Shown here: in pieces, positions 4,050 to 59,039 of the stretch
Numbering within the stretch: the stretch's first letter is position 1
Layout: each line of letters begins with the position of its first letter
Origin: an uncultured Candidatus Bathyarchaeia archaeon
Lineage (GTDB): Archaea; Thermoproteota; Bathyarchaeia; Bathyarchaeales; DTEX01
Length of the DNA stretch: 64,000 nt
Direction: 5' to 3'
NCBI GenBank assembly: GCA_964512445.1
Contig: CAZEGS010000001.1
Location: forward strand, 4,673 to 68,672
Notes under the pieces: model-generated
What the model saw: only the letters and a program-made list of their open reading frames with translations
Database searches by the model: none
Told to the model about the DNA's origin: nothing
Program-made: the position numbers and the translations under genes

Positions 4050-4634
4050 TCAGTATTTCTTTGGAATGAGGGGTCTGCCCTCCCAAAGTTCAAGTTCTCT
4101 TCTTTTAAGTTCACCTCGTTTTCTCTGAAGGAATCTATAGACTGTTGCATGCTGATTTCCCTTTATGAGCATGTTAATTGCTTCCCTAGCTATCTCGGAT
4201 TGTTCCACTCCGCCTATTATGGAGACGGTGTGTCCATAGACTGAAACATAAGAGTCGGTGCATTCCTCTATTATTCTACGTGTTTTACCTTCCTTTCCGA
4301 TTATCCGACCCTTCACTCTTCTGATGTCTGACTTACTTTTTCCAAAGATGTCTCGAAGGTTGATGATTGTAAGCATCGCATCTTCGTCTTGGAGCAGACG
4401 GAACGCTCGTTGCGGTGAGAATCCTCTGCCTATTGCGAGAACAATGTCTCTCGCTTTGAAGAGGTAAGACGGATCCTTTGCATTTTCATTCATACTTATT
4501 GTGACGTCTCCTGTCTCGCTGTCTATCTCGAGTGTAACGTCAAGATTCTCCTCTATTTCACGTTTAACTTTCCCGTTTGGACCGATCAAAACGCCGATTC
4601 TTTCCTTTGGTATCTTAACGAAGAGCTGCGGCAC
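4050..4634 (-). CDS. KH-domain RNA-binding protein (Dim2/Pno1-like, Rio-associated)
   Basis: Two KH modules (IPKERIGVLIGPNGK and RVKGRIIGKEGKTRR). The likely start is GTG at 4634-4632, 6 nt after AGGAGGA, overlapping the rio1 stop. The track start is TTG at 4676. Confidence 0.85.
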   Translation of the reverse strand: MPQLFVKIPKERIGVLIGPNGKVKREIEENLDVTLEIDSETGDVTISMNENAKDPSYLFKARDIVLAIGRGFSPQRAFRLLQDEDAMLTIINLRDIFGKSKSDIRRVKGRIIGKEGKTRRIIEECTDSYVSVYGHTVSIIGGVEQSEIAREAINMLIKGNQHATVYRFLQRKRGELKRRELELWEGRPLIPKKY

Positions 4635-45749: not shown

Positions 45750-45838
45750 GCCCCGGTGGCTTAGCGGTTAGAGCAACGGCCTCGTATATGGAAAGAGAGA
45801 GCCGTGGGTCGCGGGTTCAAATCCCGCCCGGGGCTCCA
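45750..45838 (+). tRNA. tRNA-Thr (anticodon CGU) with 13-nt intron at canonical 37/38 position; CCA encoded
   Basis: Hand-folded. Acceptor GCCCCGG/CCGGGGC, D stem GCTT/GAGC, anticodon stem ACGGC/GCCGT, loop CTCGTA-[TATGGAAAGAGAG]-A, T arm GCGGG-TTCAAAT-CCCGC, discriminator T, CCA. Confidence 0.9.
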
Positions 45839-57917: not shown

Positions 57918-58050
57918 TGGTGGGGCCGGTGGGATTTGAACCCACGACCTCGCACGCCCCAGGCGCGAATCTTAGACCAGGCTAGACCACGGCTTCACGG
58001 GACTCCCCTAAATCCTCCCATGCTCGTTGTCTCTCTTGACTTTCGGCCCC
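57918..58050 (-). tRNA. tRNA-Pro (anticodon GGG) with a 54-nt insertion (putative non-canonical intron) between the 5' acceptor strand and the tRNA body
   Basis: The body at 57918-57989 folds cleanly: D stem GTCT/AGAT, anticodon stem CGCGC/GTGCG, loop CTGGGGC, T arm GTGGG-TTCAAAT-CCCAC, 3' acceptor CGGCCCC, A73, CCA. The adjacent 5' strand GAAGCCG gives two A-C mismatches. A perfect GGGGCCG lies at 58050-58044. Confidence 0.75.
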
Positions 58051-58085: not shown

Positions 58086-59039
58086 TTAAGGCTTCACAAG
58101 AACTTTTACAGAGACCTCGGTGTTTGAGGCGGTTTCGAATGCTTTTCTAATCTCTTCAAGGGGGAATTCATGTGAGATCAAAGGTTTAAGATTCACTCTT
58201 TTCTCATTTATGAGCTTAACGGCATCATTAAAGAATTTAGTACCATACTCAGGCCCATAGACATCGAGTGAATTGCCAACTATAACTTCAGGATCTAAAG
58301 TAACGCTTTGACCATAATGAGCAATCAACCCGATTCTTCCACCATGTCTGGTAAGTGAAAAGACCTGATTAAGAGCCTCCTGAACGCCTGCACATTCAAA
58401 TGCCACGTCAACTCCCTCACCATTGGTCCAAGACTTCACATACTCATCCAGCTTCTCCTCTAAAGCGTTAACAGTAATTGCTCCAAAACATGAAGCCAGC
58501 TCTAATCTTCTAGAAGAGATCTCGCTAACGACGACTTGAGAGCCAGCATCTAAGCATATCTGCAATAGACACAAGCCGATCGGACCGGCCCCAACAATCA
58601 AGACTTTCTCATCCAATTTTGGTTGAGGTTTGAAAAAACTGTTTAGTGCAACGAGTAACGGCTCGATGAGCGCCGCCTCTTCATAACTCATATTCTCAGG
58701 AATTTTACAGAGTCTTTCGTCAGCCTTTAAGATTAGAACATACTCTGCGAAAGCTCCATAGCCTCCTCTTATCCAGTCAACTCCAAGCGTAACTCTATCA
58801 CCTACCTTAAATCGCCTTACTTTTTCTCCAACCTTAACAATATCCCCTGAGTATTCATGTCCAGAGTTGAGTGGATAGCGGAAACGTCGACCATAGGCTG
58901 TCCTTAAAAATCTATGAACGTCAGATCCGCAGATTCCACATGCTCTAACACGAACCAAAACGTCTTCTGGACCTACCCTTGGAACCTCTACTTCATCGAT
59001 TCTAACATCTCTATAACCATATATCATCGCAGTTTTCAA
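58086..59039 (-). CDS. zinc-dependent medium-chain alcohol/polyol dehydrogenase
   Basis: GICGSDVH (catalytic Zn), GHEYSG, and NAD motif VGAGPIGL. 317 aa. Confidence 0.88.
   Translation of the reverse strand: MKTAMIYGYRDVRIDEVEVPRVGPEDVLVRVRACGICGSDVHRFLRTAYGRRFRYPLNSGHEYSGDIVKVGEKVRRFKVGDRVTLGVDWIRGGYGAFAEYVLILKADERLCKIPENMSYEEAALIEPLLVALNSFFKPQPKLDEKVLIVGAGPIGLCLLQICLDAGSQVVVSEISSRRLELASCFGAITVNALEEKLDEYVKSWTNGEGVDVAFECAGVQEALNQVFSLTRHGGRIGLIAHYGQSVTLDPEVIVGNSLDVYGPEYGTKFFNDAVKLINEKRVNLKPLISHEFPLEEIRKAFETASNTEVSVKVLVKP

Follow-up and report, generated by a model that had tools for sequence, protein, structure and literature searches.

A Bathyarchaeia tRNA-Pro(GGG) gene with a probable 23-nt BHB intron in its acceptor stem and a possible surrogate acceptor strand in its 5' leader

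Which sequence encodes the 5' acceptor strand of a tRNA when two candidates lie in front of the same tRNA body? The question is raised by a tRNA-Pro(GGG) gene on the minus strand of a 64,000-nt stretch of DNA from an uncultured Candidatus Bathyarchaeia archaeon (the window, whose positions are used throughout). The heptamer GAAGCCG (57996-57990) directly abuts U8 (57989), and the tRNA body ends in the 3' acceptor strand CGGCCCC (57928-57922), A73 (57921) and a genomically encoded CCA (57920-57918). Farther upstream, GGGGCCG at 58050-58044 is a full copy of the 5' acceptor strand, preceded by the TATA-box-like promoter element TTTATTAAA (58083-58075), which lies within the conserved block CTTAAGCTTTATTAAAG; these elements and the CCA were read directly from the DNA. 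On the minus strand the order is TTTATTAAA, an interval ending in CAUUUC, GGGGCCG, AAAGUCAAGAGAGACAACGAG, CAUGGGAGGAUUUAGGGGAGUCCCGUG, AAGCCG (to 57990), U8 and the body. The next gene upstream encodes an alcohol dehydrogenase and ends at 58086. Its named best matches are Bathyarchaeota/Bathyarchaeia metagenome-assembled genomes; no tRNA was found beside the alcohol dehydrogenase homologues on their fetched contigs. Also encoded in the window are topoisomerase VI subunit B and the two subunits of DNA polymerase D. ENA ERZ27248139 and JGI 3300021469 contain near-identical contigs, and the latter metagenome also yielded a Culexmicrobium genome labelled GB.

An earlier, sequence-only reading of the locus had recorded the promoter element and the upstream heptamer, the 54 nt between the two copies of the acceptor-strand position, the mismatches A2-C71 and A3-C70 that GAAGCCG would leave, the occurrence of GCCG at both junctions and the complementarity of CAUGGGA and UCCCGUG. 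All its coordinates and sequence statements are correct on the minus strand. It took the upstream GGGGCCG as the 5' exon and all 54 nt as an acceptor-stem intron with boundaries anywhere from 3/4 to 7/8, saw no strict bulge-helix-bulge (BHB) motif and left the mechanism open.

Standard tRNA finders settle on the proximal heptamer. ARAGORN reports an uninterrupted tRNA-Pro(GGG) at 57918-57996, and Rfam RF00005 matches 57921-57996 with 44.4 bits (gathering score 29), flagging pairs 2-71 and 3-70 as non-standard. The sequence-only reading had named such a score for the uninterrupted version, combined with the lack of a BHB, as evidence against an intron; both tools do score that version, but a BHB was nevertheless found. 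tRNAscan-SE 2.0 extends candidates by 60 nt expressly for end-proximal introns (PMC8450103). The Rfam tmRNA model RF00023 also aligns to the locus (57918-58050); its 32 bits fall short of the gathering score, 47, and the E value, calculated for a small search region, is 3.5e-11. A tmRNA was rejected because this match is below threshold, the insert is only 54 nt long and ARAGORN makes no tmRNA call; the match merely reflects pairing of the upstream heptamer with the 3' strand, this heptamer and the tRNA's 3' half being aligned as a tRNA-like domain with an insert. Elsewhere in the window, at 45750-45835 on the plus strand, lies a second tRNA that ARAGORN missed (Rfam, 60.9 bits). Its anticodon loop reads CUCGUA and it is probably a tRNA-Thr(CGU), interrupted at the canonical intron position by a short insert (about 13-15 nt), for which no clean 4-bp BHB helix could be placed by hand.

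An archaeal BHB motif has a 3-nt bulge directly 3' of either strand of a 4-bp helix, and each bulge is cut between its second and third nucleotides. This established rule also follows from the geometry of the anticodon-intron pair in canonical introns. All deletions after which a 7-bp acceptor stem is restored were listed, and each was scored for the BHB motif. Among all these deletions, a single one in the window has a 4-bp central helix (H), namely the removal of the 23 nt AGGAUUUAGGGGAGUCCCGUGAA at 58016-57994, at tRNA position 3/4. In this solution, C58022, A58021, U58020 and G58019 pair with C57999, G57998, U57997 and G57996 (CAUG/CGUG) to form H, bulge 1 is G58018 G58017|A58016 and bulge 2 is A57995 A57994|G57993. 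The intron hairpin h' consists of 6 bp between GGAUUU (58015-58010) and GAGUCC (58005-58000), closed by the loop AGGG (58009-58006). The outer helix h comprises G58023 paired with C5 and, if A58024 is bulged out, G58025, C58026 and A58027 paired with C6, G7 and U8.

Exon 1 would be G1, G2 and G3 of the mature tRNA (58019-58017), as indicated by the BHB scan and the spliced product, and exon 2 would extend from G4 to A73 (57993-57921), as supported by ARAGORN, Rfam and the spliced product. Between the upstream heptamer and exon 1 remain 24 nt of 5' leader (58043-58020), delimited by the BHB scan and predicted folds. The leader takes part in the motif on both sides: its 3' end provides three of the four nucleotides of one H strand (C58022, A58021 and U58020), with G1 closing H, and it supplies one strand of h, whose exon-side strand is C5-G7 (57992-57990). 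Once the 23 nt are removed, the canonical cloverleaf is restored, and ARAGORN finds a perfect tRNA-Pro(GGG) with a 7-bp acceptor stem. The 'GAA' that ARAGORN had taken as positions 1-3 is the last nucleotide of H followed by the two A of the bulge. What ARAGORN and Rfam report as the gene does not correspond to the mature sequence. The idea of an acceptor-stem intron at a non-canonical position stands, with the interruption at 3/4 and 23 nt long instead of 54. Its proposed 5' exon does not: the GGG at 58019-58017 sits inside the supposed 7-bp helix of the sequence-only reading, where it had been overlooked as positions 1-3, and the strict two-bulge motif with a 4-bp helix exists in a register that had not been tried.

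The motif is far from what chance would produce. A stem restoration backed by H, h' and h arose in 13 of 100,000 mononucleotide shuffles (0.013%) and in 25 of 30,000 dinucleotide shuffles (0.083%). For protein-free RNA, predictions favour the unbulged 7-bp register CAUGGGA/UCCCGUG over the bulged one by 3-9 kcal/mol. Intron nucleotides 2 and 3 (GG), which are invariant in all six Pro sequences (the window and the five homologous loci described below), are paired only in the bulged register and would sit in the hairpin loop in the unbulged register, which favours the former. Eight sequences were also searched for a second, nested BHB by which what is left of the 54 nt could be excised following the first splicing event; this gave no consistent motif. 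Taking scan, shuffles, folds and covariation together, we consider it very likely that the gene is a tRNA-Pro(GGG) interrupted by one 23-nt BHB intron (58016-57994) at position 3/4, and the explanation as a whole, in which the gene is functional and matures by the processing steps proposed below, appears probable to the same high degree.

Relatives carry the same arrangement. One genome per species was scanned with a 29-mer spanning the T-arm and the 3' acceptor strand, which returned 120 loci. Two of them, L029 and L048, share the arrangement of the window, and both records are labelled uncultured Candidatus Bathyarchaeia archaeon. A scan of metagenomes with the junction sequence added L131, L132 and L133 as well as two truncated copies. 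In each of these five full loci, the same solution is again the sole one with a 4-bp H, and the introns measure 22-24 nt. Four blocks are conserved in the six full Pro sequences: the promoter block, the heptamer, CAYG-GGA-GG and CC-CRUG-AAG-CCGUGG. The promoter block is nearly invariant, while the spacer following the heptamer is strongly divergent and, like the hairpin loop, not conserved; the positions of h and H are retained. The outer helix is weak in the window, where contiguous h pairing amounts to 1 bp (or 1+3 bp with the bulged A), compared with 3-5 bp in the Pro homologues. Within the Pro family alone, the third pair of H appears as U.G, U-A or C-G. CCA is encoded in five of the six Pro genes, with UCA in L048.

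A second family surfaced when all ARAGORN tRNAs in the fetched loci were re-checked for acceptor mismatches. The tRNA-Trp(CCA) of Culexarchaeia and Methanomethylicia has the apparent 5' end UAAGCCG, which leaves three acceptor mismatches in ARAGORN. Its seven loci (L015, L051, L055, L057, L085, L087 and L140; e.g., L051:6539-6768) have the same architecture as the tRNA-Pro of the window, with an upstream GGGGCCG, a spacer of 9-12 nt and a BHB intron of 15-30 nt at 3/4, and the genes also contain a long intron at the canonical position. L140 came from wider sampling via the syntenic radical-SAM gene, which contributed this one new sequence, with an identical acceptor stem. In L051, for example, the sequence reads GGGGCCG UAAAGG GUCG GG|A CUUUGGAAG CGAU AA|G CCGUAGCUCAG. 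A 4-bp H is likewise present in just one solution per locus, both in L140 and in the six remaining Trp loci (15-30 nt). H varies in this family yet is always paired (GUUG/CAAU, GUCG/CGAU, GCCG/CGGU, GCCG/CGGC and GCUG/CAGU), and contiguous h spans 1-3 bp. Syntenic proteins at the Trp loci share only about 60-70% identity. In the window and in 12 other genes, a 4-bp helix separates two 3-nt bulges located on opposite strands.

For covariation, 11 distinct sequences of the Pro and Trp families were aligned in the BHB register. All of H is paired (100%), and changes on both sides affect three of the four H pairs as well as both h' pairs. Overall pairing reaches 90.9% of cells compared with 66.6 +/- 3.4 in shuffles, none of 500 shuffles attains the covariation score and sliding the register by 1-3 columns lowers pairing to 18-50%, figures that are biased towards the BHB structure since the alignment was fitted to it and comprises two families only. 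The compensatory changes in H are visible in the raw sequences as well.

The tRNA-Pro(GGG) genes of other archaea differ in their 5' regions. L042 and L088 possess a body (near-)identical to that of the L029, L131 and L133 group, have no intron and show an unrelated promoter and leader; the 5' block that carries the intron has therefore been gained or lost in particular lineages, on a tRNA body that is itself conserved. Many loci of soil or peat Bathyarchaeia and of Nitrososphaerota (L013, L019, L022, L028, L074, L095 and others) hold a tRNA-Pro(GGG) with 2-4 non-canonical introns, located in the D-loop, anticodon stem and variable region. L074 shows an insert of 30 nt exactly between G7 and U8, with three of four central-helix pairs in a hand test. 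Isolated 3' tRNA fragments with no recognisable 5' half upstream were seen in L024 (5900-6010, plus strand) and L044 (minus strand, match 4116-4144). They begin at the 3' strand of the anticodon stem or at the variable loop and continue over the T-arm and the 3' acceptor strand to the CCA. Integrated elements could have left them behind at attachment sites, or they could represent the 3' halves of tRNAs that are split.

If the proximal GGG is the 5' exon, the upstream heptamer lies in a leader of about 31-36 nt, outside the mature tRNA, and its presence calls for an explanation of its own. When the 78 nt upstream are shuffled, 0.6% of the shuffles contain an exact GGGGCCG, and the share rises to 2.8% if G-U pairs are permitted. 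It is kept in the five further Pro loci, with GGGGCCG in four and GGGGUCG in two of all six. Rarity in shuffles and retention in five homologous loci together indicate more than a chance match. The controls were genes with the same 3' strand and a contiguous 5' strand, in which a second complementary heptamer was sought up to 75 nt upstream. Among distinct genes, all 13 that carry a 3/4 intron and one of the 102 controls possess such a heptamer; the 13 genes represent just two, possibly related, families and share one 3' acceptor strand fixed by the search pattern, so the association says nothing about covariation between heptamer and 3' strand. Only two substitutions occur in the heptamer, C5>U (L048/L132) and C6>U (L057), and both keep G.U pairing with CGGCCCC. 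In every predicted minimum-free-energy fold the heptamer pairs with 57922-57928, with a helix probability of 0.9-1.0. The sole exception among the controls is L065 (Bathyarchaeota B46_G15, Guaymas), an intronless tRNA-Pro(GGG) with GGGGCTG 19 nt upstream. Its layout is that of a spliced pre-tRNA with a retained leader, which suggests intron loss via an RNA intermediate, or chance. Other isotypes with introns in the 5' strand were absent among 129 distinct tRNAs in about 1 Mb of fetched loci.

The spacing of the promoter fits the heptamer. By hand count, the distance from the first T of the TATA element to the heptamer is 33 nt in the window, 31-34 nt in the Pro homologues and 33 nt in L051 as the one Trp gene counted, and G1 of the window follows only at 64 nt. 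The usual promoter-to-tRNA distance in T. pendens is 30-49 nt (PMC3218864), and transcription therefore probably starts at or just before the heptamer, no more than about 5 nt from it. In the same region, the leader segment UCAUUUC (58057-58051) is complementary to the trailer GGAAUGA (57916-57910) over 7 bp including one G.U, and could extend the stem between heptamer and 3' strand; this helix was dismissed since, judged by eye, it is not conserved in homologues with available trailers.

How well do other explanations account for these data? One alternative, in which the GGGGCCG farther upstream serves as the genuine 5' strand and all 54 nt are a single intron with a relaxed or unknown motif, would fit the conserved and perfect complementarity of the heptamer to the 3' strand, its usual distance from the TATA element, the GCCG repeat at both junctions and the minimum-free-energy folds. 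But the five possible phases of a 54-nt deletion give only 0-3 of the four H pairs, the best (three of four) with an internal U.U mismatch and with neither h nor h', and the lack of a 4-bp H is the same in all five Pro homologues and in the tRNA-Trp family, while a strict, covarying BHB exists at the proximal GGG instead. All five phases of a 54-nt intron were rejected for lack of a BHB. Nothing requires the longer intron, because the mature product would be identical, and we regard it as very improbable. Slightly less credence still attaches to an uninterrupted gene (57996-57918) that tolerates A2.C71 and A3.C70, or to a pseudogene, with the upstream features coincidental. Such a gene is exactly what ARAGORN and Rfam report, but neither models non-canonical introns. 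The 'GAA' would have to be explained as well: it is invariant in six species, which the last H nucleotide and the two-A bulge account for, and the BHB is covarying and far beyond chance. Related Bathyarchaeia (L042, L088, L066 and L111) carry the same body with a normal GGGGCCG strand, and the tRNA-Trp family with its UAAGCCG follows the same logic.

A third possibility accepts the 23-nt BHB intron and denies the heptamer any function. It would be a relic of the old 5' end, left when a block consisting of leader, GGG, intron and GCCG was inserted or recombined into the gene; the source could have been a paralogue or a mobile element. A direct repeat of 4 nt, GCCG, does flank the putative block, and an ancestral +1 at the heptamer agrees with the promoter spacing. 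A precedent exists in C. subterraneum, where a 5' tRNA fragment lies upstream of a tRNA-Thr that gained an intron after integration of an element (PMC3293823). Moreover, removing the heptamer in silico had no consistent effect on BHB formation. A functionless relic would, however, not be expected to persist at 7/7 positions, or at 6/7 with a pairing-preserving C>U, in 13 of 13 genes despite syntenic protein identities of about 60-70%, with neighbouring spacers and introns diverged beyond alignment and a background frequency of 1 in 102. No integrase or element lies between the repeats, and 7 nt is far shorter than known att cores. An att-site remnant was likewise discarded, as the repeat is 7 nt long, its copies are 24 nt apart and the upstream neighbour is an alcohol dehydrogenase gene. 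We consider the relic scenario unlikely, though it deserves clearly more weight than the two preceding alternatives. It accounts for the origin of the heptamer and not for its conservation, and such an origin and later selection may both have occurred.

We favour the 23-nt BHB intron, and the pre-tRNA would then mature as follows. Transcription would begin some 25-33 nt downstream of the TATA element (58083-58075), either at the upstream GGGGCCG or slightly ahead of it. The transcript would fold into the BHB, with h between the leader and C5-G7/U8, H between C-A-U-G1 and C-G-U-G, two bulges and a 6-bp h'. EndA would cut after the second nucleotide of each bulge and an RtcB-type ligase would join G3 to G4, yielding GGGGCCG-U8; both steps are taken from established knowledge of these enzymes. 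The 5' leader, that is, 31 nt from the heptamer to U58020 plus any preceding nucleotides, would be removed by RNase P at U58020/G58019, as is suggested by the lack of a second BHB.

In the unspliced RNA, the 3' acceptor strand has no partner of its own, because G1 is engaged in H, G2-G4 lie in the bulges and C5-G7 belong to h. tRNA end-processing enzymes recognise the acceptor/T-arm stack. The heptamer might fill this gap by pairing with CGGCCCC before splicing and forming a provisional acceptor/T-arm stack, which would enable tRNA-like folding, 3'-end trimming and protection ahead of splicing. The religated true strand would later displace the heptamer, and RNase P would then remove it. In Methanopyrus kandleri, the ends are trimmed before intron removal (PMC3695527). 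Conservation of the heptamer and pairing-preserving changes amid diverged spacers and introns argue for selection on its pairing with the 3' strand. That the heptamer functions as a surrogate acceptor strand in the 5' leader seems to us about evenly balanced, perhaps leaning in its favour. The full scenario of a selected spare 5' strand that forms a provisional acceptor/T-arm minihelix, is displaced and is finally removed by RNase P is more tentative, and we would place it somewhat short of even. Competition of the heptamer with the true 5' strand for the 3' strand after splicing is a cost for any functional model. A role as a 'decoy' that frees the 5' strand for the BHB was considered and found unsupported: replacing the heptamer in silico changed the H-helix probability in no consistent direction, and the split true strand never competed.

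Canonical archaeal introns with an hBHBh' motif are located at position 37/38, cut by EndA and joined by RtcB. The intron of the window resembles them in its two 3-nt bulges, the 4-bp helix, the cuts after the second bulge nucleotide and the short intron hairpin. In contrast to them, the motif is placed in the acceptor stem, which can form only after splicing, and the 5' leader supplies half of H and one whole strand of h. The closest counterparts are the position-3/4 introns of Thermoproteales (Sugahara et al., 2008), which, as summarised in PMC4090602, have the same position, a BHB built from 5' leader, exon and intron, and a TACK host with frequent non-canonical introns; this agrees with the TACK setting invoked by the sequence-only reading, the organism being a member of Bathyarchaeia. 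Set against that summary, the present cases differ in their occurrence in the tRNA-Pro(GGG) of Bathyarchaeia and the tRNA-Trp of Methanomethylicia and Culexarchaeia.

Split and permuted tRNAs of Nanoarchaeum, Caldivirga and Thermofilum pendens (PMC3218864, PMC4033280) likewise use leader or trailer strands as scaffolds for processing. As in those genes, the distance from promoter to +1 is conspicuously long, with 64 nt in the window and 65-72 nt in the T. pendens outliers. Unlike in split or permuted genes, the parts of this gene, from promoter through leader, exon 1 and intron to exon 2, lie in colinear order within 166 nt and would form one transcript, and the extra strand duplicates the acceptor 5' strand without being part of the BHB. 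The tRNA-Thr of Caldiarchaeum subterraneum (PMC3293823) has its fragment 1.8 kb away with a recombinase gene in between, polymorphic within the population, whereas the copy in the window is 7 nt long, 24 nt away, has no element in between and is conserved across orders. In the openly accessible full texts searched, which do not include the original Thermoproteales sequences, no account was found of an acceptor-strand copy conserved in the leader. Within the literature covered, the leader copy tied to 3/4 introns may be the undescribed part of this system.

For annotation, these loci mean that tRNA finders give a mismatched acceptor stem for this tRNA-Pro and make the same error in the tRNA-Trp of Methanomethylicia and Culexarchaeia, for which a 3/4 intron is the correct model. 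Acceptor-stem BHB introns are hereby documented outside Thermoproteales, at a position that was already known. More broadly, they raise the question of how a pre-tRNA is recognised and end-trimmed when its acceptor stem forms only after splicing, for which the spare strand in the leader offers a concrete hypothesis. If general, it would amount to an undescribed design rule for acceptor-stem introns, implying a two-step 5' maturation.
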